Shown here: positions 18,424-62,455 of the stretch, piece after piece
Numbering within the stretch: the stretch's first letter is position 1
Layout: every line of letters starts with the position of its first letter
Assembly (NCBI GenBank): GCA_937864235.1
Contig: CALMJI010000014.1
Coordinates: 5,769 to 69,768, forward strand
Direction of reading: 5' to 3'
Length of the DNA: 64,000 nt
DNA from: an uncultured bacterium
GTDB lineage: Bacteria; Patescibacteriota; Minisyncoccia; SW-4-49-11
The notes under the pieces: generated by a model
What the model was told of the DNA's origin: nothing
Databases searched by the model: none
Seen by the model: the letters and a program-made list of their open reading frames with translations, nothing else
Made by a program: the position numbers and the translations under genes

Positions 18424-18433
18424 ATAATTATAT

Positions 18434-18778: not shown

Positions 18779-19045
18779 GTGGATCTCGTGAATCGCAGGG
18801 GCAACCTTGCAGTCACCTGTGTTTTTGTATTATGACCTTTTGAATTTCTGTCCTCCTTCGGAGGAGGTGGCACAGAGTGCCGGAGGTGAATTGAGCTAAA
18901 AATTAAATTCTATCCACCCTCCCCCTTACGGGTACTCCCTCCAAAGGGAGGCAAAAGCTCCGGTACAAAAATACCTCGGGCGACATAAGGTCGCATCTAC
19001 GAACACAAAACTCAATGGAGGGATAACCTCTCCACTACGACTCTC
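18779..19045. repeat. GC-rich modular hairpin repeat, copy R2 (abuts ychF stop codon)
   Basis: Modules gtcctccttcggaggaggtggcacagagtgccggaggtg, ccctccaaagggagg and gggcgacataaggtcgcatctacgaa. Confidence 0.6.
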
Positions 19046-20113
19046 CTACACATTAAACTTAAAGTGACAGACATCTCCATCTTGGATAATGTAAGACTTA
19101 CCTTCTTGTCTCAACTTACCGTTTTGCCTGGCCCCTACCTCGCTACCGCAATCGACAAAATCTTGATATGAGATTATATCTGCCATTATGAAGCCTCGCT
19201 CTATATCTGAATGTATAACTCCTCCAGCTTGTGGGGCTAAGGTTCCTTGTTTGACTGTCCAAGCTTTGGTCTCCTGTACTCCAGTGGTAAGAAAAGATAT
19301 TAAGTCTAATAATTTATATCCCTCTTGAATTAGGGTGTCTAGCCCACTCATTTCTCGTCCTAGCATTGTTAGATATTCGGTTTGCTCCTCTGCTTCCATC
19401 AGACAGATTTCAGATTCGATTTTGATAGATAGTGGGATTATATTAGTAAATTTATCTTGTAATTCTGGGCTAAGCTGATATGTCTCATCGGTATTAGCTA
19501 CATACATCATTGGCTTAGCGGTTAGAAAATTATAGGATTTTATAATTTCTAGCTCCTCTGGGGCTAGTTCAGCATCTCTAATTGGGGTACCAGCTTCTAT
19601 GCGTGGTAATATTTTTTGTAAAATTGGGAGAGTTTCTAAGGCTAATTTGTCTTTGGACTTAGCTTTTTTTTCTACCTGTGGTAGAGCTTTGGTGATCTGA
19701 TCTAAATCAGCTAATAGTAATTCAGTATTGATAATATCAGCATCTTCAATCGGGTTAATTCTATTCTCAACATGAGTAATATCATCATTATGAAATACTC
19801 TAATCACATGACAAATAGCATCTACTTGCCTAATATTAGCAAGAAATGCGTTTCCCAAACCTTCACCTTTGGAAGCACCTTTGACTAATCCAGCTATGTC
19901 TATGAATTCTATGGTAGTGGGGATTACTTTGGCAGATTTGGAAATTTGAGCCAGTACATCTAGTCTTTGGTCCGGTACTGGAACACCTCCAACATTAGGC
20001 TCAATAGTACAAAAGGGGTAATTCTCCGCTGATACTTGCTTTTTGGTAAGAATTTGAAATAGAGTAGATTTACCAACATTAGGTAGACCAACAATACCAA
20101 TGGATAAGGACAT
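19046..20113 (-). CDS. ychF: Ribosome-binding ATPase YchF (Obg-family GTPase)
   Basis: G1 'GLPNVGKST', TGS-like C-terminus, 355 aa. Confidence 0.8.
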   Translation of the reverse strand: MSLSIGIVGLPNVGKSTLFQILTKKQVSAENYPFCTIEPNVGGVPVPDQRLDVLAQISKSAKVIPTTIEFIDIAGLVKGASKGEGLGNAFLANIRQVDAICHVIRVFHNDDITHVENRINPIEDADIINTELLLADLDQITKALPQVEKKAKSKDKLALETLPILQKILPRIEAGTPIRDAELAPEELEIIKSYNFLTAKPMMYVANTDETYQLSPELQDKFTNIIPLSIKIESEICLMEAEEQTEYLTMLGREMSGLDTLIQEGYKLLDLISFLTTGVQETKAWTVKQGTLAPQAGGVIHSDIERGFIMADIISYQDFVDCGSEVGARQNGKLRQEGKSYIIQDGDVCHFKFNV

Positions 20114-20175
20114 ATTCTGATCACTTATATAATATTTGCTAGTATTATACTATAAAATTACTGATTCGGCTAGAT

Positions 20176-20440
20176 TGGGGAGGGTGGATGTATTTTTGTA
20201 ATTTAAGATTTTGCTCTGTAATTTAATAGGGGCGACTTTTCAGTCGCCCCTATTGTCCTCCTCCGTCACCTACGGTGACACCTCCCCCAAGGGAGGGAAA
20301 AAACTGTCCCTCGCCGGCGAGGGGGGACCGCGTAGAGGTGGGTGTGGACAGTCGACTTACAGGTCGCCCCTACGAATACATAAAACAATGGAGGGATAAA
20401 CCCCATCACAAATAAAGTATGTGATGACCTCAAACCCTCC
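20176..20440. repeat. GC-rich modular hairpin repeat, copy R3 (in the ychF / rpsF divergent region)
   Basis: Modules ggggcgacttttcagtcgcccc, gtcctcctccgtcacctacggtgacacctcc, gtccctcgccggcgaggg and ggtcgcccctacgaa. Confidence 0.6.
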
Positions 20441-20499
20441 GCTACGATATTTCATAATTTACCATTCATAATTTATAATTGATGATTTTATACATACCC

Positions 20500-20528
20500 T
20501 TGCTAAAAGCTTTATTTTATGCTATAAT
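20500..20528 (+). promoter_or_regulatory. Sigma-70-like promoter upstream of the rpsF operon
   Basis: TTGCTA, a 17-nt spacer, then TATAAT. Confidence 0.4.
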
Positions 20529-20609
20529 GTATTTAATCTTTCGCCAGTTCTTTATTGATTACTTCACCTAAATCTGAGTATCTACAGATTTAATGCCCAT
20601 TTATTATTA

Positions 20610-21029
20610 TTGTACAGAATAATGTTATACGAAATCACCTATATCCTAAAACCAGAGTTAACTAATGAAGAACAAGCTGCAGTTAACTCAAAAGTGGCTG
20701 GTTTAATCCAGTCATTAGAAGGAACTGCTAATCCTGCTGAGAGAACTTTTTCAGTAGAAAGAGGTGGGACTGATGAGAATAATCTTCGTAAATTTGCTTA
20801 TCCTATTAAGCATTATAGACAAGGTTATTATTACACTTCTACCTTCGAATTAGCTCCGGCTAAATTAAAAGAACTTGAGTCTATTCTGCAAAGAGAAGCT
20901 GATATTCTAAGGTTTTTGATAGTCAAAGACTTTATTAATCTAAGTGAAATACCTGTAGAATCTAAACCTGAAGAGTCAGAGCCTACCAAGTCAGAGGAAA
21001 AACCAGCTAAGTCTAGTAAAAAAGATTAA
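20610..21029 (+). CDS. rpsF: 30S ribosomal protein S6
   Basis: N-terminal 'YEITYILKP' S6 fold with a charged C-terminal tail; gene order rpsF-ssb-rpsR. Confidence 0.65.
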   Translation: MYRIMLYEITYILKPELTNEEQAAVNSKVAGLIQSLEGTANPAERTFSVERGGTDENNLRKFAYPIKHYRQGYYYTSTFELAPAKLKELESILQREADILRFLIVKDFINLSEIPVESKPEESEPTKSEEKPAKSSKKD

Positions 21030-21047
21030 TCAATAACACCAAACTAT

Positions 21048-21527
21048 ATGTATCTTAACAAAGTCTATCTTATCGGTAATCTTACCCAAGACCCAGAATT
21101 CAAGGCTCTACCTAGCGGCTCATCTGTAGCTAGTTTTAGCCTAGCCACTAATAGAACTTGGACTGATAAACAAGGTCAAAGACAAGAAACCGCTGAGTAT
21201 CACAATATTGTAGCTTATGGTAAACAAGCCGAAACTATTAGCCAATATTTGAGAAAAGGGTCTCTTCTATTCGTAGAGGGTAGATTACAAACCAGATCTT
21301 GGGAAGCTCAAGACGGTCAGAAAAAATATAGAACTGAGATTATTGTAGATACATTTCAATTTGGACCAAAAGGCTCAGGTACAGGTAGTGTAGCTAGTCA
21401 ACCTAGACCAGCAGCTAGTACTCCAAACTCTAGTCCTAAATCTACTCCATCTAGTATGCCTCAGGAGGAATTACCAACTGTCAATCTAGATGAAGACGAG
21501 ATTGATTTAGAAGAAATCCCATTTTAA
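21048..21527 (+). CDS. ssb: Single-stranded DNA-binding protein
   Basis: OB-fold 'VYLIGNLTQDPEFK', low-complexity linker, acidic C-terminal 'DLEEIPF' tip. Confidence 0.8.
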   Translation: MYLNKVYLIGNLTQDPEFKALPSGSSVASFSLATNRTWTDKQGQRQETAEYHNIVAYGKQAETISQYLRKGSLLFVEGRLQTRSWEAQDGQKKYRTEIIVDTFQFGPKGSGTGSVASQPRPAASTPNSSPKSTPSSMPQEELPTVNLDEDEIDLEEIPF

Positions 21528-21545
21528 TTAGTTAATTATATATTT

Positions 21546-21767
21546 ATGCGAAATAATAAGAAGAAAGCTCCTAAAGTCTGCTACTTCAGCACAAATAATG
21601 TAGCTATAGACTATAAAGATGCTATCACCTTAAAGATGTTCATCACTCCACAGGCTAAAATAGTACCATCCCGAAGAACTGGAACTCGAGCTAATCACCA
21701 GAGAAATCTATCTAAAGCTATGAAAAGAGCTAGATTTCTATCTATTATTCCTTATGTAACTAGATAA
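21546..21767 (+). CDS. rpsR: 30S ribosomal protein S18
   Basis: '[23 protein letters not shown]...[29 protein letters not shown]'. Confidence 0.8.
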
Positions 21768-21771
21768 ATAT

Positions 21772-22041
21772 ATGCCTATTACACAATCTGCTATCAAAGC
21801 CCACAGACAATCTCTCAAGAAAAATGCTGAGAATAATATTGTCAAAAAGAGACTCAAAGCTACTGTCAAAGAATTTGTAGGTTACCTATCTACTGACATT
21901 GAGAAAGCTAAAGAGTTAATCCCTAGACTATACAAAGCTATTGATAAAACCGCCAAAAGAGGAATCTTGAAAAAGAACTCTGCTGGCCGTAAGAAATCTC
22001 GTCTAATGGCTAAGTTAAATCAAGCTGTAGCTGGGAAATAG
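21772..22041 (+). CDS. rpsT: 30S ribosomal protein S20
   Basis: 'SAIKAHRQSLKKNAENNIVKKRLKATVKEF' typical S20 helical protein. It occupies the position where rplI (L9) usually follows rpsR. Confidence 0.65.
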   Translation: MPITQSAIKAHRQSLKKNAENNIVKKRLKATVKEFVGYLSTDIEKAKELIPRLYKAIDKTAKRGILKKNSAGRKKSRLMAKLNQAVAGK

Positions 22042-22101
22042 AGATATTCTGCAACCCTGTATTGGCCAAGACACCTCCAGATTTGTGGGAGGTTTTTTGG
22101 T

Positions 22102-23124
22102 TTATGGTAATAATATCCCCAACTCTCTCAATTTATCATAAGGGCTTTGACCTTGGAATTTGATGGCAGAGTCGCCGTCGATGAGGTTTAGATATATTTT
22201 TTTGAGGTCTTGAGAGTTCCAAGTGCGGATATTTTGAGCAGTGATTTGGAGTACATAGGGATGTCCTTTGGTATAATTTGAATATTGTAATCCCTTTTCT
22301 TGAGCTAATTTTATAATTAAAGCATTTTTTATTTGGCTAATTATTAAACCATAAAGGGCAATACCTTCTATACCACTTTTTTCTATATATTTAAGAGCTG
22401 TTAAGTATTTTCCATAATTATGGCTATAAATATACTCTGTAAGAGAGAATATACTATATGTATCTAAATTTGGAAAAATCAACTCTAGCATTGATTTACT
22501 TATATTATGCTTCTCCCCATAATAATTATATATTTGGTTAAACATAGATTCTATTTTATAAAAATCTATTCTAAATGGTGATTTTTTGGCTTTATTAGTT
22601 TCTTTTTCTTGAGTTTGTTTATGCTCTTGTTTTTGTAAGTCTATTAAATACATTATTCCCTCTCTATTTATATCCAAACCTTGCTCTAAACTCATTTGTT
22701 GTATATAGACTATAGCTTTAGGTTCTGGCAAGTAATCATACTGAGTTTGTTTGGCTTGTAAATCGATTAAAGTTTTAGCTAATGGGTGAGTTTTAGGTAT
22801 ATTATTGGTATTATAAAATACAATTATAATTTCACTATTATCTTTGAGAGTCTGTAATGTTTTTTTAACTTTTGGATATAATGCTTTAGGTAGAAGTACT
22901 AAATCTTTAATAATAATTAGTCTTTTTTCGCTGAATAATGAGCTAGTGTTGAAGCTTTGTTTTAATTTGGCTAATAAAGTATCTTCTGTATCTGGTAATT
23001 CTATATCTTCAAAGTGAAATATCTCTTGTTTAGCTTGTTTTTGTAAGCCAAGTTGTTGAATGGATTTTAACTTTTGACGAGAGCGATAAGTATCTGGTCC
23101 TGCAATTGATATAATCATATTCAC
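22102..23124 (-). CDS. holA: DNA polymerase III subunit delta (HolA)-like
   Basis: N-terminus 'MIISIAGPDTYRSRQKL' is typical of small-genome HolA; 340 aa. Confidence 0.45.
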   Translation of the reverse strand: MNMIISIAGPDTYRSRQKLKSIQQLGLQKQAKQEIFHFEDIELPDTEDTLLAKLKQSFNTSSLFSEKRLIIIKDLVLLPKALYPKVKKTLQTLKDNSEIIIVFYNTNNIPKTHPLAKTLIDLQAKQTQYDYLPEPKAIVYIQQMSLEQGLDINREGIMYLIDLQKQEHKQTQEKETNKAKKSPFRIDFYKIESMFNQIYNYYGEKHNISKSMLELIFPNLDTYSIFSLTEYIYSHNYGKYLTALKYIEKSGIEGIALYGLIISQIKNALIIKLAQEKGLQYSNYTKGHPYVLQITAQNIRTWNSQDLKKIYLNLIDGDSAIKFQGQSPYDKLRELGILLP

Positions 23125-28704: not shown

Positions 28705-28915
28705 AGTGGAGGTTTTTAGTCCATCCCATACCTTGTTTGGGATAGGATTTATCCCTCCAGTTTTTCGTAGGGGCGACCTTTCAGTCGCCTTAAATTCCCC
28801 TCGTTGAGGGGTGCCCGTAGGGCGGGGTGGAGTGTTTTGTTTTTCATATTTATTCCACCCCGTCAGGCAAGCCTGCCACCCCTCAATTTATCTCCCGTAG
28901 GGATGAGAGGGAAAT
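28705..28915. repeat. GC-rich modular hairpin repeat, copy R4 (pgl / dnaE divergent region)
   Basis: Modules ggggcgacctttcagtcgcc, cccctcgttgaggggtg and ccaccccgtcaggcaagcctgccacccctcaa. Confidence 0.6.
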
Positions 28916-35520: not shown

Positions 35521-35810
35521 GTTTCCGTAGGTGCGACCTTCTTAGTCGCCCGTAAATCCACCCCGTCTCTATACTATAAAAATATAGTATAGATCACCCC
35601 TCAAGAGGGGAATTTAGCTCAGTCCACACCCGGCACTCCGTGCCACCCTCGCCGGCGAGGGACAAAATTACTGTCCTCCCTTGCCTGCCTGCGGTAGGCA
35701 GGGGGGAGCTTTCAGTCCCTCCTATATTTATATAGGAGGGGGTGGCCATCAGGCAGGAGGAGGACAAGTGGACGACTGAAAGGTCGCCCCTACGAAAGAA
35801 ATTATCCCGT
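35521..35810. repeat. GC-rich modular hairpin repeat, composite copy R5
   Basis: Modules gtgcgaccttcttagtcgccc, ccaccccgtc, cccctcaagagggg, ggcactccgtgcc, ccctcgccggcgaggg, gtcctccc..cctgcctgcggtaggcagg and ggacgactgaaaggtcgcccctacgaa. Confidence 0.6.
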
Positions 35811-44616: not shown

Positions 44617-44675
44617 AGTTACCTCAAACTTGCAAACTCAACCATAACACAAAAACAAGAATTTAGCAAGTTGGT

Positions 44676-44900
44676 GTACGAGATGAGGTAATCGTCGACA
44701 AAAGAGATTGTATACATTACTAGTCTACTAACATTAAGTTCCGATAGTAGTTGTCCTCCTTTGGAGGAGGTGGCACCGTAGGTGACGGAGGAGGACAAGA
44801 TATCAAGATTATATTTAATATAATAGAATAATATTAATCTTTAAAATATATAGTCCACACCCACCACCTCGTGGTCCCCCCTCGCCAGCGAGGGACATAA
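44676..44900. repeat. GC-rich modular hairpin repeat, copy R6 (with AT-rich 5' leader)
   Basis: gtacgagatgaggtaatcgtcgacaaaagagat leader, then gtcctcctttggaggaggtggcaccgtaggtgacggaggaggacaag, then cccctcgccagcgagggac. Confidence 0.6.
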
Positions 44901-48475: not shown

Positions 48476-48640
48476 TGTCCTCCTTTACCTGCCTACCGCA
48501 GGCAGGCGAAGGGGGACAAAATAAACTGTCCTCCCTTGGGGGAGCTTTAAGTCCCTCCTATATTTATTTAGGAGGTGGGTGGCACCGCAAGGTGACGGAG
48601 GAGGACAAGCTGGAGACCTTTTAGGAGTCCCTCCTAAAAT
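48476..48640. repeat. GC-rich modular hairpin repeat, copy R7
   Basis: gtcctcctttacctgcctaccgcaggcagg..gtcctcccttggggg..ggagg..ggcaccgcaaggtgacggaggaggacaag. An inverted, near-identical copy lies at 58353..58495. Confidence 0.6.
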
Positions 48641-48768: not shown

Positions 48769-48924
48769 TTTGTTCAAGATAATAATGATTTTGCTAAGGT
48801 AAAGAAAAAGCTCGAGTCATTGCTCGAGCTTTCACAATGATCACCAGAGTTAGACTCTGGATCGGTGGGTAACTCCAAAAGCAATATAATAATATAAGAA
48901 TATTTTGCTTTTGTCGATACAATG

Positions 48925-49105
48925 TACGAGATGAGGTAATCGTCGACAAAAGGGATAGATACATTACTAAACTAATAACAGTAAATTGGATAGTAATTGT
49001 CCTCCTTTGGAGGAGGTGGCACGGAGTGCTGGAGGTGGATTGAGTTCTAGTTTATGTTTTATCCACCCTCCCCCTACGGGTACTCCCTCCTAAGGGAGAC
49101 AAAAT
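48925..49105. repeat. GC-rich modular hairpin repeat, copy R8 (with AT-rich 5' leader), upstream of mod
   Basis: gtacgagatgaggtaatcgtcgacaaaagggatagatacattactaaactaataacagtaaattgg leader, then gtcctcctttggaggaggtggcacggagtgctggaggtggat..atccaccc and cgggtactccctcctaagggag. Confidence 0.6.
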
Positions 49106-49256
49106 TAAGAACTCTTTTTATAACCATATAAACTACTTTCATGTGTCACCTATAAAAGTAACAACTTATATACGATGTATCTCATCTTATTCATACAACC
49201 CCTATTTTTTTATCTAAAAAATTGATATAATTTAGCTAAAGATATATATTAGTTTT

Positions 49257-51581
49257 ATGAATAATACAGTCAAAAATTTGAAAAGTTTAATCAAAAGCAC
49301 TTTGAAGGGTGATGAGAGATTATGGTTTGTCAATCAAGATAATGAACAGGAATTCAATCAAACTTTGCTTTTGGATTTGGTAGAAAAAGTAGATAATAAA
49401 ATTATTAGTCTATTATTACAAGAGGAAGTATTAAGAGAGAAGTTTTTTGTCAAAATTGTTCCACCCCGTCCAGCAAAGCTGTCCACCCCTCAAGAGGGGA
49501 ATTTTTCCTATGTCTTCAAAACTAATGAATTTAGATTCTTTATGGAGGAGAACAAAGTAGATAATTCATATACTAGTTTCAAAAATCGCATCGGGCTTAC
49601 TGATGGTAAAAAATTCCTCAAAGATAGTGGCGATATTGTATTAGATTGGCCGTATAAAGACTGTGTGCTAGAAGGTGGGCAAAGTACGGAGGAAGGATCA
49701 GATATTTATTTTGAATATGACACTAAATCCACCCCGTCAGGCAAGCCTGCCACCCCTCAAGAGGGGAATTATATCAAGAAGCAAGGTAAGAGAAAAGAAA
49801 TATTTTTCAATCAAGTTCTAGCTCAAGATGAGATAGATAGATTGCTAGATCCAAAGGCTTTGGTTAATTGGAAAAGATTTGATAAAAATGGTAAAACTCC
49901 CCTCTTGAGTGGTGGCGACGAAGTCGACGGGGTGGATGCTCTCAAAAGAAATGAAGACGGCACTATTGCTGAGAATTTGATTATAAAAGGCAATAATCTC
50001 TTAGCTCTACACTCTCTCAAAAAACAATTCCGAGGCAAAGTCAAGCTGATTTATATTGACCCACCTTATAATACTGGTAATGATGGCTTCAAATATAATG
50101 ATAACTTCAATCACTCCACTTGGCTGACTTTTATGAAAAATAGATTGGAAGTGGCAAGAGAGCTATTGCGGGAGGATGGGGTGATCTTTGTGCAATGTGA
50201 TGATAATGAGCAAGCATATTTGAAGGTTTTAATGGATGAGGTGTTTGGGAATAATTTTTTGAATACTATATCTGTAAAAGCAAAAGTTAGTGCAGGAGCA
50301 AGCGGAGGAGGTGAGGATAAAAGACTTAAAAAGAATATAGAGTATATACATTGTTACTTTAAGAAAGATTTTATTGTTTTTAACGATTTATACAAAGAAA
50401 CAGAAATAGTTTCATATATACAACAGATGAAAAATGAAGGGAAAAGTTTTAAATATACTCAGGTTTTAATTTCTACTGGTGAAAAAGAAATATTAAGAGT
50501 TATTAAAGATGGTTCTGGAGAAGATATTACAATCTATAAACACTCAGGAGTTGTAATTAAAACAATCTCTCAATTAATAAAAGAAGAGAATCTTTCTGTA
50601 AAGGAGGTATATAAAAAATATTTCAATAAAATTTTCACAACAACGAATGCACAAAGTTCAATTCGCCAAAGAGTTTGGGATGCAACTGGTAAAAACAATG
50701 ATTTTTTTAGTATTGAATATATTCCAAAATCAGGAAGAAATAAAGATAAATTAACCACACAATTTTATACAGGAAATAAAAAGGTTCTTCTAATATGGTT
50801 TAGCGATACAGCTATAATTGATAGTAAAGGAAATGTAATTAAAAAAGAAAAATACGGTACATTTTGGGATGGAATTGACTATAATAACTTAAATAAAGAG
50901 GGCGATAATATTTTTTCTTCTGGTAAAAAACCAGAAAAACTTATTCAAAGGATAGTTGAAATGAGTACAGAAAAAGGCGACATTGTGCTTGACTATCATC
51001 TTGGCTCTGGGACTACTTGTGCAGTGGCTCATAAAATGGGTCGGCAGTATATTGGAATTGAGCAAATGGATTATATTGAGACTATCGCTGTGGAGAGGTT
51101 AAAGAAAGTAATTAGGCAATCCACCTCCCCCGCTAAAGCGGGTACTCCTCAAGATGAGAATATTCCCCTCGTTGAGGGGTGGACTGCGAAGCAGGACGGG
51201 GTGGATTCTTTTGACACAGGAGGAATATCCAAAGCTATAAATTGGCAAGGTGGTGGCGATTTTATCTATTTTGAACTAGCTAAATGGAATCAGCAGGCTA
51301 AAGAAATAATTCAAGCAGCTGAGAGTTTGGAGGAGATGATTGGATGTTTGGATGAATTATCTGATAAATATTTCCTCAATTATAATCTCAAAATGCAAGA
51401 ATTTCGAGAAAAGGTAATCTTGGAGGCTGAGTTCCAAACTTTATCTCTAGAGAGCCAAAAAGCTATATTTATGGCTATGCTGGATAATAATCAGATGTAT
51501 GTCAATAAAAGTGAAATGGCTGATGAGAAATTTGGTATTAGTGAAGAGGAGCAGAAATTGACAGAGGAGTTCTATAAGTAA
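49257..51581 (+). CDS. mod: Type III restriction-modification system methyltransferase (Mod; beta-class N6-adenine/N4-cytosine MTase)
   Basis: Motif IV 'IYIDPPYN' upstream of motif I 'VLDYHLGSGTT' (beta-class order); 774 aa; a res gene lies downstream. It carries four in-frame GC-rich repeat modules. Confidence 0.8.
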   Translation: MNNTVKNLKSLIKSTLKGDERLWFVNQDNEQEFNQTLLLDLVEKVDNKIISLLLQEEVLREKFFVKIVPPRPAKLSTPQEGNFSYVFKTNEFRFFMEENKVDNSYTSFKNRIGLTDGKKFLKDSGDIVLDWPYKDCVLEGGQSTEEGSDIYFEYDTKSTPSGKPATPQEGNYIKKQGKRKEIFFNQVLAQDEIDRLLDPKALVNWKRFDKNGKTPLLSGGDEVDGVDALKRNEDGTIAENLIIKGNNLLALHSLKKQFRGKVKLIYIDPPYNTGNDGFKYNDNFNHSTWLTFMKNRLEVARELLREDGVIFVQCDDNEQAYLKVLMDEVFGNNFLNTISVKAKVSAGASGGGEDKRLKKNIEYIHCYFKKDFIVFNDLYKETEIVSYIQQMKNEGKSFKYTQVLISTGEKEILRVIKDGSGEDITIYKHSGVVIKTISQLIKEENLSVKEVYKKYFNKIFTTTNAQSSIRQRVWDATGKNNDFFSIEYIPKSGRNKDKLTTQFYTGNKKVLLIWFSDTAIIDSKGNVIKKEKYGTFWDGIDYNNLNKEGDNIFSSGKKPEKLIQRIVEMSTEKGDIVLDYHLGSGTTCAVAHKMGRQYIGIEQMDYIETIAVERLKKVIRQSTSPAKAGTPQDENIPLVEGWTAKQDGVDSFDTGGISKAINWQGGGDFIYFELAKWNQQAKEIIQAAESLEEMIGCLDELSDKYFLNYNLKMQEFREKVILEAEFQTLSLESQKAIFMAMLDNNQMYVNKSEMADEKFGISEEEQKLTEEFYK
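49460..49505 (+). repeat. In-frame GC-rich repeat module inside mod (encodes PPRPAKLSTPQEGN)
   Basis: ccaccccgtccagcaaagctgtccacccctcaagaggggaat, the same module as intergenic copies R4, R5 and R14. Confidence 0.55.
49729..49770 (+). repeat. In-frame GC-rich repeat module inside mod (encodes STPSGKPATPQEGN)
   Basis: ccaccccgtcaggcaagcctgccacccctcaagaggggaat, nearly identical to R4 at 28856..28885. Confidence 0.55.
49897..49940 (+). repeat. In-frame GC-rich repeat module inside mod, inverted orientation (encodes PLLSGGDEVDGVD)
   Basis: cccctcttgagtggtggcgacgaagtcgacggggtggat. It contains the reverse complement of the ccaccccgtc and cccctcaaga modules. Confidence 0.45.
51121..51200 (+). repeat. 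In-frame GC-rich repeat module inside mod C-terminal region (encodes STSPAKAGTPQDENIPLVEGWTAKQDGVD)
   Basis: ccacctcccccgctaaagcgggtactcctcaag..cccctcgttgaggggtgg..gacggggtggat. It shares gggtactcc, cccctcgttgagggg and ccaccccgtc motifs with R2, R4 and R8. Confidence 0.5.
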
Positions 51582-51590
51582 TTATGAATT

Positions 51591-52628
51591 ATGAAAAAAG
51601 AGAAAAAACAATTATCTCAAATCATACAATCAAGTACAGCTCAGTATTTGACTTTTGTGTCGGCCAATGGTGATGATTCGTCTAGTATAGAAGTAAGATA
51701 TGAGGATGAGAATATTTGGATGACTCAAAAAATGCTGGCGGAACTGTATGATGTATCTGTGTCGGCCATCAATCAGCATATTAAGAAATTAACAGAAGAT
51801 AATGAGATAAACGATTCAGTTATTAAGCAATACTTAATAACTGCTAGTGATGGTAAGAAATATAATACGGCTCACTACAATCTTCAAACAATTATTTCTA
51901 TTGGATTTAAAATAGAAAATGAAAGAGCGGTACAATTTCGTAAATGGGCAAGAGAAATAGTAAAAGAGTATACTATTAAGGGTTTTGTAATGGATGATGA
52001 GAGGCTCAAAAATGGAGGTACCACTTTAACTAAAGAGTTTTTTGAACAACTTCTTGAAAGAATTAGAGAAATAAGGCTATCGGAGAGAAAGTTTTATCAA
52101 AAAATTACTGATATTTATGCAACAGCGATTGATTATGATTCTAGTGCAGAGACGACAAAAAAGTTTTTTGCTATGGTACAAAACAAGCTTCACTGGGCAA
52201 TTCATGGACAAACAGCCTCTGAATTGATCTATACTCGGGCAAATTCAGAAAAAGAAAATATGGGGCTTACTTCTTGGAAAGATGCACCAAAAGGGAAAAT
52301 TCAAAAATTTGATGTGAGTATTGCCAAAAATTATCTTACTGACAAAGAACTTGCAAGTTTACAAAGAATAGTATCGGCATATCTGGATATCGCAGAAGAT
52401 ATGGCAGAGAGAAATATCCCAATGACAATGCAAGATTGGGCAAAAAGACTCAATACCTTTATAGAGGCAGCAGATAGAAAAGTGCTTCAAGATGCTGGGA
52501 AGATTACCGCACAAATAGCAAAGGACTTTGCAGAAAGTGAATTTGAAAAATATAGAATTGTGCAAGATAGATTGTTTGAATCAGATTTTGACCGTGAGAT
52601 AAAAAAACTTTTAGAAAACAATTTATAA
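51591..52628 (+). CDS. RhuM-family (virulence-protein RhuM-like) HTH protein embedded between mod and res
   Basis: N-terminal 'TQKMLAELYDVSVSAINQHIKKL' HTH and conserved RhuM-like core 'RAVQFRKWAREIVKEY'; 345 aa. Confidence 0.5.
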   Translation: MKKEKKQLSQIIQSSTAQYLTFVSANGDDSSSIEVRYEDENIWMTQKMLAELYDVSVSAINQHIKKLTEDNEINDSVIKQYLITASDGKKYNTAHYNLQTIISIGFKIENERAVQFRKWAREIVKEYTIKGFVMDDERLKNGGTTLTKEFFEQLLERIREIRLSERKFYQKITDIYATAIDYDSSAETTKKFFAMVQNKLHWAIHGQTASELIYTRANSEKENMGLTSWKDAPKGKIQKFDVSIAKNYLTDKELASLQRIVSAYLDIAEDMAERNIPMTMQDWAKRLNTFIEAADRKVLQDAGKITAQIAKDFAESEFEKYRIVQDRLFESDFDREIKKLLENNL

Positions 52629-52631
52629 TAT

Positions 52632-53474
52632 ATGAAAACACAATTAATTCACCAACTTACGGCCAATTTCGAAGATTTATCACATCAGACAAATTATGGA
52701 GTAGAGTTTTGGTTGGCAAGAGACTTACAACATCTTTTGGGCTATGATAAATGGGATAATTTTAAGAATATTATTAGTAAAGCAAAAACAGCTTGTGAAA
52801 TTTCTGGGCAGAAAGTTACAGACCATTTTGCCGACGTCGGGAAAATGGTCTCTATAGGTTCAGGTGCTGAAAAAGAAATAGAAGACTTAATGTTAACTCG
52901 CTATGCTTGTTATCTCATTGCTCAAAATGGAGACTCAAGAAAACAGGAAATTGCCTTTGCTCAGACTTATTTTGCAGTACAAACCAGAAAAGCTGAAATT
53001 ATAGAACAAAAAATCCTTGAATATGAAAGAGTTCAGGCTAGAAATAAACTTGCAGAAACTGAAAAAGAGCTATCTCAAGTAATATTTGAACAAACAGGAA
53101 GTGATCAAAACTTTGCACTAATTAGAAGTAAAGGTGATCAAGCTTTATTTAATCAAACTACTCAACAAATGAAGGGTAAATGGGGAATTAAGAATAAGCC
53201 TCTTGCTGATTTTATGCCAACCATATTACTGAAAGCTAAAGATTTTGCTACTGAAATTACTATTTTTAATGCCAAAGAAAAAAAGATGCAAACAGAGCAT
53301 CAAATTTCAAATGAGCATATTACTAACAATAAATCTGTGAGACATACTCTTATTACTCGTGGTATTACTCCAGAAAATTTACCACCTGAAGAAGATGTCA
53401 AAAAAATTGCCAGAAAACTAAAAAAAGAGGAGAAAAAAACTATTAAAACAGATGATACCTTTGGTAATTCATAA
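52632..53474 (+). CDS. dinD: DNA-damage-inducible protein D (DinD)-like protein
   Basis: 'GVEFWLARDLQHLLGYDKWDNFKNIISKAKTACEISGQKVTDHFADVGKMV...LTRYACYLIAQNGDSRKQEIAFAQTYFAVQTRKAE' aligns closely with the E. coli DinD N-terminal domain. Confidence 0.6.
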   Translation: MKTQLIHQLTANFEDLSHQTNYGVEFWLARDLQHLLGYDKWDNFKNIISKAKTACEISGQKVTDHFADVGKMVSIGSGAEKEIEDLMLTRYACYLIAQNGDSRKQEIAFAQTYFAVQTRKAEIIEQKILEYERVQARNKLAETEKELSQVIFEQTGSDQNFALIRSKGDQALFNQTTQQMKGKWGIKNKPLADFMPTILLKAKDFATEITIFNAKEKKMQTEHQISNEHITNNKSVRHTLITRGITPENLPPEEDVKKIARKLKKEEKKTIKTDDTFGNS

Positions 53475-53489
53475 CTTATAATTAACACT

Positions 53490-56261
53490 ATGTCAGAGAT
53501 CAAAAATCTATATGAAATCATCGGAGAAAAGGCTTATAGGCTAAGATTGCCTTATCCTGAAATTCCAGATTATATTACTGATAATCTGAAATATAGTTTT
53601 TTTGATTGGCAAAAGTCGGCTTTTGAGAATTTTTTGACTTATCAGGCGATTAAGGACATTGAAACTCCTAATGAGCCGACTCATCTGATGTTTAATATGG
53701 CCACAGGTACTGGTAAAACTATGCTGATGGCAGCTACTATTTTGTATTATTATAAGCAGGGGTATCGGCATTTTTTGTTTTTTGTGAATCAAAATAATAT
53801 TGTAGATAAGACGGAGAATAATTTTATAGATAATGCTCATAATAAGTATTTGTTTCAGGATAAAATTGTTATTGACAGAGAAACGGTGGAATTAAAGAAA
53901 GTTGAGGTGTTTAGTGATAATCCGACTGGAATTGAGATTAAGTTTACTTCGATTCAAAAATTGTATAATGATATTCATTTGCAAAAAGAGAATCAGACTA
54001 CCTTGGATGATTTGATGTCTCGTGATTTGGTGATGTTGGCAGATGAGGCTCATCATTTTAACACTGATACCAAAAAAGCTAAATTGCAGACTAATTTGAT
54101 TGAGGCGGAATTAAATAATAAATCTAGTGAAAATTTGATTGAAAAGTTGGGTTGGGAGCATACGGTTATAGAGTTGATTTTGAAAAGAAATAATTCACAA
54201 GATCATCTGCGGGCGAATAAAAATGTGCTTTTGGAATTCACGGCGACTATTCCAGCTACGGCGAGTGTGGCTAAAAAATATGAGGATAAAATCATTTATA
54301 AATTTGGCTTAAAGGAGTTTTTACAAGCAGGTTATACTAAGCAAATTAATCTTATTTCGTCGAATTTGGAGAAAAAGGATAGAATTTTGCAGGCTTTGCT
54401 TTTCCATTGGTATCGGCATAAAGTAGCTCTAGATGCTGGTATTCCTAATTTTAAGCCAGTGATTTTGTTTAGAAGCAAGACTATTGAGGAGTCTAAACAG
54501 GATTATGAGGAATTTGTGGATATGGTATCTAATTTGTCTTTGGAGGATTTGAAATTCTTGGATTATATTTTGGAGAATTTTAAGTTTGCTAATCATAGTC
54601 TGTATGAGCAAGGTAAGAATAGAACGGAGCAATTGGTGGATTATATACAGGTGAATAAAATTAGCCGTAGTGAGATTATAGATTTTATTAAGCATAATTT
54701 TCAAGAGAAAAATATAATTATTACTAATTCCAAAAGTAATAAAACCAAAAAAGAGAAAACTGATGCTGAGGTGGAGCGATTATTGAATAATCTAGAGGAT
54801 AAGAATAATCATATTCGGGCTATTTTTACGGTGGAGCGATTGACTGAAGGTTGGGATGTCTTGAATTTGTATGATATTGTCCGGCTGTATGAAGGGCAAA
54901 ATACGGGTGGCTCAAACTTTAAATCTAATAAAACTCCAGAGTCAACTACAAAGGAAAAACAGCTGATTGGGCGAGGGGTGAGATATTATCCTTTTGATTA
55001 CCCAGAAAAGGATAGGCATAAGCGAAAATTTGATAATGATACTCAAAAGCGAGAGCGAATTTTGGAGGAGCTATTCTTTTATAGTGTGAATGAAAGTAGA
55101 TATATTTCAGAGCTAAAAACCGAGTTAAAAAGGGAGGGGTTTATTGATGAGAATCGGAATATTAGAACTTTTGAATTAAAAGAAAATTTCAAAAAGACAG
55201 ATTTTTATAAGCAATTCAGAGTCTGGCAAAATAAAAAAATCCCTAATCCTAATCGGCGAAAAAACACTTTAGCTGACTTGAAGCAGGACAAGAATTATTT
55301 TATTGCTCCTTTTCAAGTGCAAAATTATAGTGTCAAAGAGTACGGAGTGGATTTTAATAACCCTGAAAAGGAAATTAGGCAGAATCAGATGGCAAATCCT
55401 AATGCTAATTATACGATTAAATTAACTAAAGTGGAGAGGCATATTTTTTATAAGGCGATTCATATTCTGGCTAAGCAAGAAAATTCTCTGTATAGATTCG
55501 ATAAATTGAGTCAGGAATTGGCTATCAATAGTATTGATGACTTGTTAAAACCAGAATTTTTGGGGGATATGGAGGTGGCTTTCAAGCTCCCAGCAAAGAT
55601 GAGTTATCTGGATTTGGATAATAAGCATAAATTGAATGCGGTGATTTTGTTTTTGGCAGATATTGAGAGTAGATTAACTGAGTCTATTAGTGAATATATA
55701 GGTAGTCGGGAGTTTTATCCTAAGAGTCTGGATAGTATTTTTGGAGCTCCTAAAGCTAAAGTTATTGATGAGCTAAATGAAAATACCGAATTTGCTGAGC
55801 AAAATGATTGGTATGTATTGAATAATTTTGTGGGCACAGATCAGGAGCGATATTTGGTGGAATTTATCAAAGACTCTATGTCGCAGTTGGAGCAGCAATA
55901 TAAAGAGATTTATCTTTTGCGAAACGAGGAGATTTATGGGATTTATGATTTTGATAAGGGTAGAACTTTTATGCCAGATTTCTTGCTGTTTTTGAAGACT
56001 AAAGATAAAAAGAGTGTCGGAGTGGCAAATACAGAATTATATTATCAGGTATTTATCGAGCCAAAAGGTGAGCAATTATTATCTTTGGATGCTTGGAAAA
56101 ATGATTTTCTGAATAAAATTCAAAAAGATTATGGTCCTGAGAATATTATTCAAGCTGAGAATCCTAATTATAGGTTAATTGGATTGCCTTTATTTAATCA
56201 ACAACTGAGTGCTGAATTTAGAGATAAATTTTCAAAATTAATGGAAACTAATAACAGCTAA
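53490..56261 (+). CDS. res: Type III restriction enzyme, Res subunit (SF2 helicase plus PD-ExK nuclease)
   Basis: Walker A 'MATGTGKT', DEAH box 'MLADEAHH', helicase motif VI region, and C-terminal PD-(D/E)xK-like 'MPDFLLFL...VFIEPKG'; 923 aa. Confidence 0.8.
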   Translation: MSEIKNLYEIIGEKAYRLRLPYPEIPDYITDNLKYSFFDWQKSAFENFLTYQAIKDIETPNEPTHLMFNMATGTGKTMLMAATILYYYKQGYRHFLFFVNQNNIVDKTENNFIDNAHNKYLFQDKIVIDRETVELKKVEVFSDNPTGIEIKFTSIQKLYNDIHLQKENQTTLDDLMSRDLVMLADEAHHFNTDTKKAKLQTNLIEAELNNKSSENLIEKLGWEHTVIELILKRNNSQDHLRANKNVLLEFTATIPATASVAKKYEDKIIYKFGLKEFLQAGYTKQINLISSNLEKKDRILQALLFHWYRHKVALDAGIPNFKPVILFRSKTIEESKQDYEEFVDMVSNLSLEDLKFLDYILENFKFANHSLYEQGKNRTEQLVDYIQVNKISRSEIIDFIKHNFQEKNIIITNSKSNKTKKEKTDAEVERLLNNLEDKNNHIRAIFTVERLTEGWDVLNLYDIVRLYEGQNTGGSNFKSNKTPESTTKEKQLIGRGVRYYPFDYPEKDRHKRKFDNDTQKRERILEELFFYSVNESRYISELKTELKREGFIDENRNIRTFELKENFKKTDFYKQFRVWQNKKIPNPNRRKNTLADLKQDKNYFIAPFQVQNYSVKEYGVDFNNPEKEIRQNQMANPNANYTIKLTKVERHIFYKAIHILAKQENSLYRFDKLSQELAINSIDDLLKPEFLGDMEVAFKLPAKMSYLDLDNKHKLNAVILFLADIESRLTESISEYIGSREFYPKSLDSIFGAPKAKVIDELNENTEFAEQNDWYVLNNFVGTDQERYLVEFIKDSMSQLEQQYKEIYLLRNEEIYGIYDFDKGRTFMPDFLLFLKTKDKKSVGVANTELYYQVFIEPKGEQLLSLDAWKNDFLNKIQKDYGPENIIQAENPNYRLIGLPLFNQQLSAEFRDKFSKLMETNNS

Positions 56262-56264
56262 TTT

Positions 56265-57272
56265 ATGGCCTATATATTCACCCTTTTATTCTTAATCTCT
56301 TGTGTCTGTCTAGTGGTGGGTCTGATTAGGCCGAGGGTTTTTGCGGGATTATTCCAGGGTAAGTCTACCAGAAAGCAGATTGGGATTATGTTTGGGATGC
56401 TGATTTTTGTCTCATTTGTTTTGGTGGCTGCTAGTCCTCTTCCAGAGGGTTATGAAGAACAGTCTAATGAGCCAAAAGCAGAGGAAGTGGTAATTCCAGA
56501 GACTGAGGTTGCTAACTCTGAGCCAGAAGAGGTGAAACCTGAGGAAGTACAAGAGGAAAACACCCCTGTAGAGGCAAATTTGCCTGCTCCAGTGGCAGTT
56601 CAAGACAACACTAGTATTACAGAGGCAGAAGTAAAACCTGAGCCAAAAGAGGAGCAAAACCAGGTTAAGGATTTATTCCAAGTGACGGAGGTAGTGGATG
56701 GAGATACGATTAAAGTTAGTCTTCTTGGAACTTTACGGCTAATTGGGATAGACACTCCAGAGACTAGAGACCCAAGGAAGCCAGTGCAGTGTTTTGGAAG
56801 AGAAGCTAGTAATAAAGCAAAAGAATTATTGAGTGGTAGAAAAGTGTATTTGGAATATGATCCTGCTAACAAAAAAGATAAGTATGGGCGGACTTTGGCT
56901 TATGTCTATCGGGAAGATGGGTTGTTTTATAATGCTGAGATGATAAAACAGGGTTATGCCCACTCTTATGTACAATTCCCACATCCTAGATTAGATGAGT
57001 TTAATATTTATCAGCGAGAGGCTAGAGAAAATGAACGAGGCTTTTGGGCGACTAATACTTGTAATGGAGATACAACTAAGGCTGCTTCTGGATCAAAGCC
57101 TAAATCTACTACTCCCCTACCAATTAGTCCAGAATTCAATAAAGATGGATTTATAGCAGGAACTTGTGCTAGTCTCAAAAAATTGGGTTTGGGTAATTTT
57201 AGAGAGGGTGACCCGAATTATACTAAATCAAGGGACGGGGACGGAGATGGGGTCGCTTGTGAGATGAATTAA
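56265..57272 (+). CDS. Membrane-anchored staphylococcal-nuclease (SNase/thermonuclease) domain protein with C-terminal Excalibur Ca-binding domain
   Basis: Two N-terminal TM helices, E/P-rich linker, SNase core 'VVDGDTIKV...LRLIGIDTPE...GRTLAYVY', C-terminal 'DGDGDGVACE' Excalibur motif. Confidence 0.75.
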   Translation: MAYIFTLLFLISCVCLVVGLIRPRVFAGLFQGKSTRKQIGIMFGMLIFVSFVLVAASPLPEGYEEQSNEPKAEEVVIPETEVANSEPEEVKPEEVQEENTPVEANLPAPVAVQDNTSITEAEVKPEPKEEQNQVKDLFQVTEVVDGDTIKVSLLGTLRLIGIDTPETRDPRKPVQCFGREASNKAKELLSGRKVYLEYDPANKKDKYGRTLAYVYREDGLFYNAEMIKQGYAHSYVQFPHPRLDEFNIYQREARENERGFWATNTCNGDTTKAASGSKPKSTTPLPISPEFNKDGFIAGTCASLKKLGLGNFREGDPNYTKSRDGDGDGVACEMN

Positions 57273-57328
57273 GAAAAAACCCCTACAAAATAGGGATTTG
57301 GGTTGTTATTGAGTTGTTGGATCGGGAC

Positions 57329-58033
57329 TCAGCCAACGAGTGCGGCTGCTGCCATTCGAGCTATTTCACGGTTTTCAAATCCGATATCCATCAGAGCTTC
57401 CTGATAGGAACTGAGGAAATCAGCCATCAGGTCTTCCTTGTCCATGTGAAGCGCTTTAGCATCCACAGCCACCTGGTCGAGCATTTTGCGAACCAAGGGC
57501 AGATTGTCCCGGTTAGCCTGCTTCAATTCCTCCCGACTGGCATTGAGATTGGCCTTCAGCCATTCCTGTCCGTAGTTGAGATGAGTGTATTCATCTTTGA
57601 CCACCCGTTCTGTGATCTTGCGGGCAAATGGATCGGCCACTGGGATATAAATGTGGTAGGCGGAAATCGCAAAGGCTTCGATCAAGATTGCCTGAATCAA
57701 CATGCAGGTCACCACTTTGCCATCAGTGATGGCCTTCTGAAAATTGCCATGCAATGGAGCGAAGAACTCCTTTGCAAACGGCATATCTGCTGTCACACCG
57801 AGGTTGTTGGCACAGGCGGTGAAACCTTTCATATGCTTGAGCTCCATGCGGGCCAGCTTGACAAGCTCCTCCACCTGGTCTGGCATCAGGGTGCCAATAG
57901 CGATGTAGTTGTCATGAGCCTCCTGTTCACCCTTGATTACGATGGCATTGATGCGACTGTAGGCATCTTTGTAGGTGTCACTTGTGAAGTCTGGGAGATC
58001 AGATTGTTCACCGGTAATTGATACTGCTGTCAA
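57329..58033 (-). CDS. ado: Aldehyde-deformylating oxygenase (ADO, cyanobacterial-type ferritin-like di-iron enzyme), N-terminally truncated, apparent TTG start
   Basis: Near full-length match to the cyanobacterial ADO family signature blocks 'DFTSDTYKDAYSRINAIVIKGEQEAHDNYI', 'KGFTACANNLGV', 'CMLIQAILIEAFAISAYHIYIPVADPFARKITERVVKDEYTHLNYGQEWLKAN'. The ORF sits in a ~770-bp block of about 50% GC, against about 30% background. Confidence 0.8.
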   Translation of the reverse strand: MTAVSITGEQSDLPDFTSDTYKDAYSRINAIVIKGEQEAHDNYIAIGTLMPDQVEELVKLARMELKHMKGFTACANNLGVTADMPFAKEFFAPLHGNFQKAITDGKVVTCMLIQAILIEAFAISAYHIYIPVADPFARKITERVVKDEYTHLNYGQEWLKANLNASREELKQANRDNLPLVRKMLDQVAVDAKALHMDKEDLMADFLSSYQEALMDIGFENREIARMAAAALVG

Positions 58034-58352: not shown

Positions 58353-58495
58353 GTCCTCCTCCGTCACCTACGGTGCCACCCACCTCCTAAATAAATATAG
58401 GAGGGACTTAAAGCTCCCCCAAGGGAGGACAGTAATTTTGTCCCTCGCCAGCGAGGGACAAAATACAACAGGCGACTGAAAGGTCGCCCATACAA
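58353..58495. repeat. GC-rich modular hairpin repeat, copy R13 (inverted orientation relative to R7)
   Basis: gtcctcctccgtcacctacggtgccacccacctcctaaataaatataggagggacttaaagctcccccaagggaggac is the reverse complement of 48530..48610. It is followed by gtccctcgccagcgagggac and ggcgactgaaaggtcgccc. Confidence 0.6.
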
Positions 58496-61870: not shown

Positions 61871-62349
61871 TTAGGTTTATCTTTTCTATTTCTTGAGGAT
61901 CTAGGGTATATTATTAGTATAATACCTATACAGATCAGAAATATACTTAGATATAAATTGATATTTTGATGGTTAAATTTATTTTGAAATATATTTTTTA
62001 CTCCAAAAAATCCAGTATATATACCTAGTAAAATCCCCAACTGATATTTATTATATTGTTTAATGAAATTTTGAAACAGTTTTTTCATTGTTTTAACAAA
62101 GAAGCCAATATAATATACTATAAATTTAGCTAATTGATAAGAGTGTGTGTTGGGATTGAAAATTGAGGGATAGTTTTTTTTGTCCTCCTTTCTACCTACG
62201 GCAGATAAATGGAGGAGGTGGTCTTTAGGTCGGAGGTGGATTTGAGCTAAATTCCCCTCTTGAGGGGTGGACAGCTTTGCTGGACGGGGTGTAAAATAAA
62301 ATATATTCAAATTATAAAAATACTCCACCCCACCGCCTAAAGACGGCAC
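61867..62349 (-). CDS. Small membrane protein; the annotated N-terminal about 50 aa are encoded by repeat R14 (true start probably an internal Met, e.g. MKKLFQNF)
   Basis: The C-terminal two-thirds is AT-rich with two TM helices. The N-terminus 'FTPRPAKLSTPQEGN' is the same peptide encoded by the in-frame repeat at 49460 in mod. Confidence 0.3.
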   Translation of the reverse strand: MPSLGGGVEYFYNLNIFYFTPRPAKLSTPQEGNLAQIHLRPKDHLLHLSAVGRKEDKKNYPSIFNPNTHSYQLAKFIVYYIGFFVKTMKKLFQNFIKQYNKYQLGILLGIYTGFFGVKNIFQNKFNHQNINLYLSIFLICIGIILIIYPRSSRNRKDKPK

Positions 62350-62455
62350 CCCTCAAGAGGGGAATTTTTTAGAGCAAACAGGCGACTGAAAGGTCACCCC
62401 CTCCTAAACTAATAAAGTATGGGAGGGACAAAAGCCTACTAAGGGAGACAAAATT
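62181..62455. repeat. GC-rich modular hairpin repeat, composite copy R14
   Basis: gtcctcctttctacctacggcag..ggaggaggtgg, ggaggtggat, cccctcttgaggggtggacagctttgctggacggggtg (inverted module), ccaccccacc, cccctcaagaggggaat and ggcgactgaaaggtcacccc. Confidence 0.6.

Follow-up and report, generated by a model that had tools for sequence, protein, structure and literature searches.

A Type III restriction-modification operon with RhuM-family and DinD genes lodged between mod and res in an uncultured Patescibacteriota bacterium

Five co-oriented open reading frames (ORFs) at positions 49257–57272 (+ strand) of a 64,000-nt stretch of DNA from an uncultured bacterium (GTDB lineage Patescibacteriota; Minisyncoccia; SW-4-49-11; assembly GCA_937864235.1, contig CALMJI010000014.1, forward-strand positions 5,769–69,768; hereafter termed the window) encode, in order, the Mod subunit of a Type III restriction-modification (R-M) system, a RhuM-family protein, a DinD protein, the Res subunit of the R-M system and a nuclease with SNase and Excalibur domains (Table 1). 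The spacers between the five genes are 9, 3, 15 and 3 nt, in this order. An original prediction, made from the DNA letters alone, had given the exact coordinates and strand of all five ORFs, and its description of two co-oriented genes wedged between mod and res with 3–15-nt spacers is borne out by the spacers of 9, 3 and 15 nt; the nuclease ORF, however, does not overlap the res stop codon as had been stated, but starts 3 nt beyond it. The core genes mod and res, which are canonically adjacent, are kept apart here by 1908 nt containing two genes. This separation is the anomaly under study and is no argument against the Type III assignment.

Mod matches PF01555 (165 bits, 2.6e-48), PF12564 (29.9 bits), TypeIII_RM_meth and the PADLOC profile MTase_III (2e-216). 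Its motifs run from the DPPY motif IV (residues 268–271) through a target-recognition domain (TRD) to the motif I sequence LGSGT, and the string DYHLGSGTT is kept in an alignment of this Mod with twelve homologous Mods. Res matches ResIII (2.3e-24) and PADLOC REase_III (5e-109), and a public protein identical to it carries PF27159 and PF27365 HI_1054. It consists of a superfamily 2 (SF2) helicase and a C-terminal PD-(D/E)xK nuclease, with the motifs GTGKT (residues 73–77), DEAH (185–188), TAT, QxxGRxxR (491–498) and PD-x27-EPK (829–859), and spans 99–100% of homologues of 907–945 amino acids. A solved structure of EcoP15I Res exists; phmmer gave no match of the present Res to any PDB chain at E <= 0.01. 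Like EcoP15I/EcoP1I and Haemophilus HI1054-1056, this system has a Mod of the motif IV-TRD-motif I order, a Res of the SF2 and PD-ExK type, and mod before res, but its core genes are 1.9 kb apart and its Mod includes four repeat-derived insertions. Judged by sequence, the Type III R-M gene pair is intact and the operon is probably active.

This Mod is expected to differ in specificity from its closest relatives. In tblastn comparisons with relatives, only Mod residues 7–380 and 536–773 were covered, and the TRD block is unconserved in the Mod alignment. As the TRD is unrelated to those of the closest relatives, the Mod recognition sequence is presumably different from theirs; the TRDs of two of the related loci (loci are denoted by L and a number), L098 and L094, are the same as each other.

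Both embedded proteins are assigned with high scores. The first is a full-length RhuM family member (PF13310, 358.9 bits against a cut-off of 33.7, 1.6e-107, residues 76–327) and matches the PADLOC PDC-S05 profile PDLC04851 at 3e-144 over residues 7–341. The original prediction of a RhuM-family helix-turn-helix (HTH) protein therefore stands as to RhuM but not as to the HTH, for which matches are weak and below the Pfam cut-offs. The second was predicted to be DinD-like, which is right as to family but understated, because the match is at equivalog level (NCBIfam NF008573, 'DNA damage-inducible protein D'; 369.2 bits against a cut-off of 242, residues 1–274). This protein contains a Bro-N domain (43 bits, 7e-11) and the conserved DinD C-terminal domain, and matches the PADLOC PDC-S13 profile PDLC04919 at 1.2e-116. 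A profile search of the embedded ORFs had been set beforehand as one of two tests that could overturn the proposal, and these strong RhuM and DinD matches leave it standing. Whether the N-terminal domains of RhuM and DinD share an ancestor was also considered; the profile-profile comparison gives no support for this (probability 0.2).

The thermonuclease with an Excalibur domain that had been predicted after res is also present, with matches to SNase (PF00565, 86 bits, 2.6e-24) and Excalibur (PF05901, 2.4e-9) and intact catalytic motifs DTPE (residues 163–166) and GRTLA (208–212). Its N-terminus has two hydrophobic segments (~residues 1–30 and 36–62) around a basic loop, as defined by 19-residue Kyte-Doolittle windows with a mean above 1.6 that start at residues 1–12 and 36–44; an acidic Pro/Glu-rich linker, the SNase domain and a C-terminal Excalibur Ca-binding domain follow. 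The two segments suggest that the catalytic domain is located outside the cytoplasm and tethered to the membrane. In the SNase fold, the DTPE and GR.LA motifs, the Excalibur domain and the predicted N-terminal anchor, the protein resembles exported staphylococcal nucleases (Nuc/NucI, EcnA), but it scores below both the NucI and the EcnA equivalog cut-offs. Linkage to an R-M operon was not found as a described feature of such nucleases in the open-access literature.

The arrangement of the cluster is consistent with a single transcription unit, in which the RhuM and dinD genes would be transcribed with mod and res from a promoter upstream of mod. In the terminator scan, no convincing + strand terminator was found inside the five-gene cluster, and a hairpin that sits between the nuclease gene and a convergent aldehyde-decarbonylase-like gene is probably the 3' end of the operon. 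Upstream of mod, the best promoter-like hexamer pair is TTGATA-17-TATATT (49222–49250), which is a consensus match only. This pair stops 7 nt short of the mod ATG, and if it is used, the mRNA would be leaderless or nearly so. GC skew is strongly positive across the module (0.24–0.34 at 50000–57000), compared with ~0 to 0.1 in most of the window, which fits a foreign origin or a strong strand/coding bias of the island.

Table 1. Features of the R-M module and its immediate surroundings (window coordinates).
Feature	Position	Strand	Remarks
mod	49257..51581	+	774 aa; Type III methyltransferase and specificity subunit, beta-class motif order, intact
RhuM-family gene (PADLOC candidate PDC-S05)	51591..52628	+	345 aa; cargo cassette 1
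dinD (PADLOC candidate PDC-S13)	52632..53474	+	280 aa; cargo cassette 2
res	53490..56261	+	923 aa; Type III restriction subunit, HI_1054-like family, full length
SNase/Excalibur nuclease gene	56265..57272	+	335 aa
Leader and probable promoter region of the module	48782..49256	+	blastn against L091; repeat families D1, D2, D7, D10
Hairpin, terminator-like on both strands	57277..57299		sites 57281-57295 (+) and 57299-57277 (-)
Target-recognition domain of Mod (~residues 381-535)	50397..50861	+	unrelated to TRDs of closest relatives
Mod insertion 1 (residues 68-84, VPPRPAKLSTPQEGNFS)	49458..49508	+	repeat families D3, D4; inverted pair I4
Mod insertion 2 (~residues 158-172)	49727..49773	+	repeat families D3, D4; alignment
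Mod insertion 3 (~residues 214-223, TPLLSGGDEV)	49893..49937	-	reversed half-copy; inverted pair I11; alignment
Mod insertion 4 (~residues 629-662)	51120..51205	+	two head-to-head copies forming a palindrome; inverted pair I8, family D14; alignment

The cluster is located ~5 kb from dnaA-rpmH-rnpA-yidC, and the closest RhuM and Res relatives include Patescibacteria. By exact-protein look-up, the same five-gene cluster occurs in many metagenomes, always within this organism's own population, and conservation of the exact mod-rhuM-dinD-res order, which had been proposed as a check, was not seen beyond that population. A metagenome scan with Res yielded 80 related loci, and in 74 of them both the end of mod and the start of res are visible. 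Of these 74, 43 have mod next to res, among them homologues at ~60% Res identity that also have no nuclease gene (L094–L097), and the other 31 have 0.7–4.5 kb of cargo between the two genes, always co-oriented. Cargo is found in 9 of the 52 loci of clades at >=44% Res identity (i.e., at least 44%) and in all 22 loci of a clade at 35–37%.

The junction cargo belongs to about two dozen unrelated families. These include AbiJ/Abi_C proteins, with AbiJ accompanied by a 254-aa partner in four loci (L164, L170, L173 and L175); a minimal CBASS consisting of a one-transmembrane (1TM) effector and a SMODS/AGS_C cyclase (L169, positions 2232–4107; L172; L177); PrrC/RloC-like AAA_13 ATPases (e.g., L155 and L163); a PIN toxin with a small partner; HEPN, STAND-like AAA_14 ATPase and Schlafen/AlbA_2 proteins; and a ClpP-like protein. 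Several further families have no Pfam or PADLOC match (L117, L159, L160 and L162), and these proteins and the 254-aa partner of AbiJ are possible new defence candidates. The presence of cargo in 31 of the 74 loci indicates that the mod-res junction of this Type III family is an exchangeable slot that recurrently receives defence cargo.

This variety bears on the possibility that RhuM and DinD are controllers of the R-M system, in which case winged-helix/Bro-N proteins would regulate or delay res expression as C proteins do, allowing safe establishment in a new host. Both proteins have putative DNA-binding N-terminal domains, and their genes are positioned between mod and res, where delayed Res synthesis would be useful. 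However, the 43 systems with adjacent core genes, among them the relatives at 60% identity, have no intervening gene at all, some occupants of the same slot are enzymes and toxins, which cannot be regulators, and C proteins are much smaller than RhuM and DinD, whose C-termini form conserved domains other than HTH. A control function of this kind is highly improbable.

The same two cargo families recur in the slot in other combinations. DinD proteins 85–86% identical to that of the window are encoded in the mod-res junction beside a Res that is only 57% identical (L125, L126 and L154), RhuM/PDC-S05 genes occupy the junction in L134 and L105, and PDC-S13 genes precede res in L098 and L099; a PDC-S13-type gene before res is a common theme of this R-M lineage. 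The objection that RhuM and DinD are unrelated chance neighbours is thus contradicted by related genomes, in which these families are tied to the R-M unit (L125, L126, L154, L134, L105 and L098).

The orthologous locus of a sister species, L098, documents the exchange of whole cassettes. Both of its flanks are 78–80% identical to the window at the nucleotide level, and it contains mod, a gene for a 305-aa Bro-N protein, res and the nuclease gene, without RhuM. The 305-aa protein belongs to the PDC-S13 subfamily PDLC04920 (4e-130), and BLASTP detected no similarity between it and the DinD of the window, although both match PDC-S13 profiles. Homology between the two loci resumes at the beginning of res and no more than ~40 nt from where the cargo begins, as is expected for cassette exchange by recombination in conserved flanks; cassettes would be swapped between the conserved mod 3' end and the conserved res 5' end.

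In another related genome (L091/L100), a block of leader, mod, res and nuclease gene is found at a different chromosomal site. The L091 flanks map to window positions 17141–20160 and 20477–22820, i.e., to genes that are adjacent here. By blastn, L091 positions 5737–5859 match the leader at 48782–48906 (~125 nt) with 82.5% identity, and the shared block starts at 48782 and ends at 57275, 3 nt past the nuclease stop codon. The presence of this block, including the nuclease gene, at a second site indicates that R-M unit and nuclease gene have moved together at least once. The corresponding window segment, 20160–20477, is a 317-nt intergenic region full of small repeats, where L091 has a 10.4-kb island consisting of the R-M module, an AAA_15/AAA_21 ATPase gene and two small ORFs; this segment looks like an empty defence-island hotspot.

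The two cassettes are independent of each other and of this R-M system in their wider distribution. RhuM homologues reach 70–83% identity across phyla. Among species-representative genomes, the 80 closest RhuM homologues are 47–78% identical and spread over many phyla, and near their genes this DinD is found once, a Type III-like Mod five times, and this Res or nuclease in none. The commonest neighbour is HsdM upstream (19/72) and HsdS downstream (12/69), indicating that the recurrent R-M context of RhuM is Type I; beta-class (Type III-like) methyltransferases make up 2 of the 72 upstream neighbours. The present protein is like the RhuM family (PF13310; Salmonella SPI-3 RhuM) in its full-length, high-scoring match and R-M context, but whereas Type I is the most frequent context near its closest relatives, it is encoded in a Type III junction.

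DinD homologues are likewise ~80% identical across Bacteroidota, Kapabacteria, Endomicrobia and this organism. Relatives stand alone in L178 and L179, and in L180–L183 lie between the res and mod genes of a Type III system with another architecture, followed by a PrrC/RloC-like AAA_13 gene. A scan of viral contigs with the single DinD sequence gave no match, and an alignment-based scan gave 103 DinD relatives on IMG/VR contigs, mostly without R-M neighbours. RhuM-DinD adjacency was found elsewhere only in L025 and L242, and a conserved RhuM-DinD pair was rejected on the basis of its frequency of 1/80 among the closest RhuM loci and 1/80 among viral DinD loci (L242). In L242, an IMG/VR contig, a RhuM gene whose product is 40% identical lies directly upstream of the DinD gene (4855–6810).

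Since most relatives of this R-M system are without RhuM and DinD, these two are not R-M subunits, and their unconserved pairing indicates an R-M system with two independent cargo cassettes rather than a co-evolved five-gene machine. The idea of a composite five-gene defence module accordingly survives in the form of an R-M operon with defence-candidate cargo, and not as a unit that evolved together. Overall, we consider it likely, with a probability of roughly 70%, that the locus is an intact and probably active Type III R-M operon whose mod-res junction is an exchangeable slot, occupied here by two independent cassettes. In such an operon, Mod/Res would methylate host DNA and cut unmethylated incoming DNA. 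RhuM would act as a stand-alone second-line effector that halts growth on phage infection, with an N-terminal winged-helix/Bro-N-like part for sensing or DNA binding and a conserved helical C-terminal domain that is predicted to be a toxin. DinD, by analogy with its E. coli counterpart, which inhibits postsynaptic RecA filaments (Uranga et al., 2011, as summarized in PMC4457935), would act on RecA filaments on duplex DNA, thereby limiting recombinational rescue of restricted DNA or tempering self-damage. The most plausible role of the nuclease, predicted to be exported and tethered to the membrane, would be degradation of DNA outside the cytoplasm, before entry.

Several observations weigh against this interpretation. 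The four insertions could impair Mod, yet all keep the reading frame and fall in loops where homologues have gaps. For RhuM, single-sequence and profile searches of PDB yielded nothing meaningful, and the AlphaFold2 model (56-sequence alignment) had a mean pLDDT of 43.6, which is too poor for a fold search. The same PDB searches were equally uninformative for DinD, whose model (39-sequence alignment; mean pLDDT 55.5) was also too poor for this purpose; both alignments are shallow because the available homologues are 70–89% identical. No test of DinD as a defence gene was found in the literature, and since its gene also stands by itself on chromosomes and, on more than 100 viral contigs, lies apart from R-M genes, its role may be unrelated to restriction. 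As for the nuclease, res has no neighbouring SNase gene in the more distant Type III loci, where there is one distant, non-adjacent match; its linkage to R-M seems confined to a narrow lineage, and the predicted exported protein may be a carried-along DNA scavenger.

A defence role of the nuclease is the weakest link of the explanation, and an alternative in which it acts outside immunity, as an exported DNA-scavenging or biofilm enzyme carried along with the R-M block, has a chance only slightly short of even. Its predicted extracytoplasmic position, with the two N-terminal hydrophobic segments and Excalibur, agrees with such a function, as does its PADLOC match, which concerns only the SNase domain of a CBASS effector. 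On the other side, the gene follows res after a 3-nt gap without a terminator between them, and orthologues 67–69% identical are kept directly after res in L091, L098, L099 and L100, which represent two chromosomal sites; the end of the shared block 3 nt past its stop codon also speaks for a bond with the R-M unit. Extracellular nucleases such as Vibrio Dns limit DNA uptake.

A closer relation between host and cargo than that of a slot and its cassettes can also be conceived. In a PrrC-type guardian arrangement, Mod-Res would hold RhuM and/or DinD inactive, and a phage anti-restriction protein that disables the enzyme would free them as toxins, so that the five genes form one machine. The placement of the two genes between R-M core genes mirrors that of prrC, an anticodon nuclease gene embedded in the Type IC hsd operon EcoprrI, and relatives of PrrC/RloC of the AAA_13 type share the slot (L155 and L163) or lie beside DinD (L180–L183) in related loci. 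RhuM is a predicted toxin in R-M/PrrC neighbourhoods, where it takes the position of Doc toxins (Anantharaman et al., 2013; PMC3710099). In addition, DinD matches the N-terminal 275 positions of the 717-position DinD-HsdS fusion profile PDLC03083 (2.3e-51), one 468-position PDC-S05 profile fuses a DinD-type Bro-N domain to RhuM, and a fusion coding sequence of dinD and RhuM inside a Type I operon has been reported (PMC9881135). These fusion profiles hint that RhuM and DinD may work close to, and in contact with, R-M specificity subunits.

EcoprrI-PrrC and RloC are, however, ABC-ATPase/HEPN anticodon nucleases that are unrelated to RhuM and DinD, and masking and triggering are hypothetical for the present locus. 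Moreover, near-identical DinD (~80–86%) and RhuM (70–83%) proteins are encoded beside Type I systems, beside two Type III architectures, or beside no R-M system. Such different partners are hard to square with a co-evolved interface and weaken the guardian arrangement. A single PDC-S05 gene, unrelated to the RhuM gene here, was also reported to protect cells alone, without R-M, reducing T7 and T5 plating ~1000-fold and being active against T4 as well (bioRxiv 10.1101/2024.09.26.614923). Taken together, a guardian arrangement is unlikely.

At the opposite extreme, the two genes could be selfish hitch-hikers without a defence role, the junction being a 'genomic sink' in which RhuM and DinD are kept by an addictive R-M system, and DinD being a mere housekeeping modulator of RecA. 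A sink of this kind, with selfish benefit, has been discussed by Payne et al. (bioRxiv 10.1101/2024.01.29.577857). The unconserved pairing, the turnover of cassettes between sister genomes and the DinD genes standing alone in L178 and L179 are compatible with it, and in E. coli dinD is a chromosomal SOS gene. Against it, the slot cargo consists overwhelmingly of known defence genes, with transposases and metabolic genes not seen in the slot; all cargo is co-oriented with tight spacers, both proteins are very highly conserved across phyla, and one PDC-S05 gene has reported anti-phage activity. The other occupants of the slot make hitch-hiking, like a control function, less likely, and on balance it is very unlikely.

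The dinD gene of the window is like those of E. coli (DinD/PcsA) and gonococcal NgoAV in its full-length equivalog match and in its family's documented embedding in R-M loci (Type I). The E. coli gene is SOS-induced, whereas the one described here is in a Type III junction and has no promoter space; the 3-nt spacer before it makes a LexA control of its own unlikely.

The repeat insertions in Mod that had been predicted are real. Short, GC-rich, palindromic repeats are scattered through the window, and all four insertions derive from one such family of ~48 nt with the core CCACCCCTCAAGAGGGGAAT, present in frame as full or half copies; each adds 10–34 residues where homologous Mods have gaps. 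Insertion 1 is 98% complementary to positions 62249–62294, and 11 of the 12 homologous Mods have a gap at its position; insertions 3 and 4 are common to the sister-species Mod (L098). The repeat is mostly intergenic, with further copies at 28835–28886, 35595–35617 and 62243–62369, and the sister-species Res also contains a copy (L098 positions 7705–7760, matching window 62309–62366). This placement recalls the Rickettsia palindromic elements, which also occur within genes. No simple-sequence tract that would suggest phase variation was found in mod.

At the centre of the insertion-4 palindrome, L091 and L099 contain a different RhuM gene, whose product is 25% identical to RhuM of the window and which splits mod into two ORFs, an N-terminal one of 590 aa and a C-terminal one of 169 aa (L091, 7700–9360; L099, 769–2920). 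As seen by tblastn, the last ~130 Mod residues are consequently encoded by a separate downstream ORF in these loci. RhuM-type genes have thus been acquired by this R-M lineage on at least two independent occasions. The insertion at a repeat centre suggests that the palindromic repeats might be landing pads for cassettes. In the broadest version of this idea, the mod-res junction would be a dedicated, recombination-driven slot comparable to the hsd locus or an integron, and PDC-S05 and PDC-S13 proteins would be R-M guardians that dock on the specificity/methylase subunit and fire when restriction is blocked. This combination is quite unlikely.

That accessory genes are embedded in R-M operons is already an established phenomenon, and dinD and RhuM between Type I core genes have been described (PMC9881135). 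In the 'guilt-by-embedding' survey of Payne, Hughes, Fineran and Jackson (bioRxiv 10.1101/2024.01.29.577857), genes embedded in Type I R-M, BREX, DISARM and Hma systems were 96.7% co-oriented and enriched in defence functions, and 145 PDC candidates were derived from genes embedded in BREX, DISARM and Type I R-M, with Hma approached first. PDC-S05 and PDC-S13 belong to this set, and the genes described here are similarly co-oriented and tightly nested between core defence genes, being neither mobility nor housekeeping genes. The hosts in that survey were Hma, BREX, DISARM and Type I R-M, whereas the present host is a Type III system with a single mod-res junction in which two candidates lie side by side. 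In the open-access literature, we found no description of the mod-res junction of Type III systems as a slot for cargo.

The additions made by this locus are modest: a Type III host, a nuclease, predicted to be exported, that moves with the module, and in-frame Mod repeats, one of them at the point where a cassette is inserted in a sibling genome. The embedded-defence idea, already described for Type I R-M, BREX, DISARM and Hma, is widened to include a Type III family, and the understanding of R-M systems or defence islands is not changed by it. Two abundant and very highly conserved defence candidates, RhuM/PDC-S05 and DinD/PDC-S13, can be tested in this compact natural construct alongside the R-M system that hosts them, and the mod-res junction could offer an inexpensive place to look for new immune genes.

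The surroundings of the module contain further repeats. A ~200-nt dispersed repeat occupies leader positions 48910–49105, directly upstream of mod, and is one of three copies of a composite element (8431–8644, 44664–44800 and 48910–49105) whose segments are 65–97% identical and which has no Rfam match; no Rfam family reached the gathering score anywhere in the 64-kb window. A perfect 63-nt inverted repeat (48525–48587 and 58371–58433; 100% complementary, 9783 nt apart) flanks the whole R-M module together with the aldehyde-decarbonylase-like gene, and belongs to a dispersed family with another copy at 35702–35742.

The gene convergent with the module (57329–58033, - strand) is a full-length match to long-chain fatty aldehyde decarbonylase (PF11266, 1.9e-114), and a + strand ORF at 57314–58021 is its shadow. 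This family is normally regarded as cyanobacterial, but a cyanobacterial origin of the DNA was rejected: no photosynthesis genes were seen among the window ORFs sampled, a metagenome-assembled genome from the same DnaA cluster (90% identity) is labelled Candidatus Parcubacteria, and Patescibacteria are among the closest RhuM and Res relatives. In the ~300 nt downstream of the gene on its own strand there is only a 106-aa ORF, and no gene of the size of an acyl-ACP reductase is apparent there.

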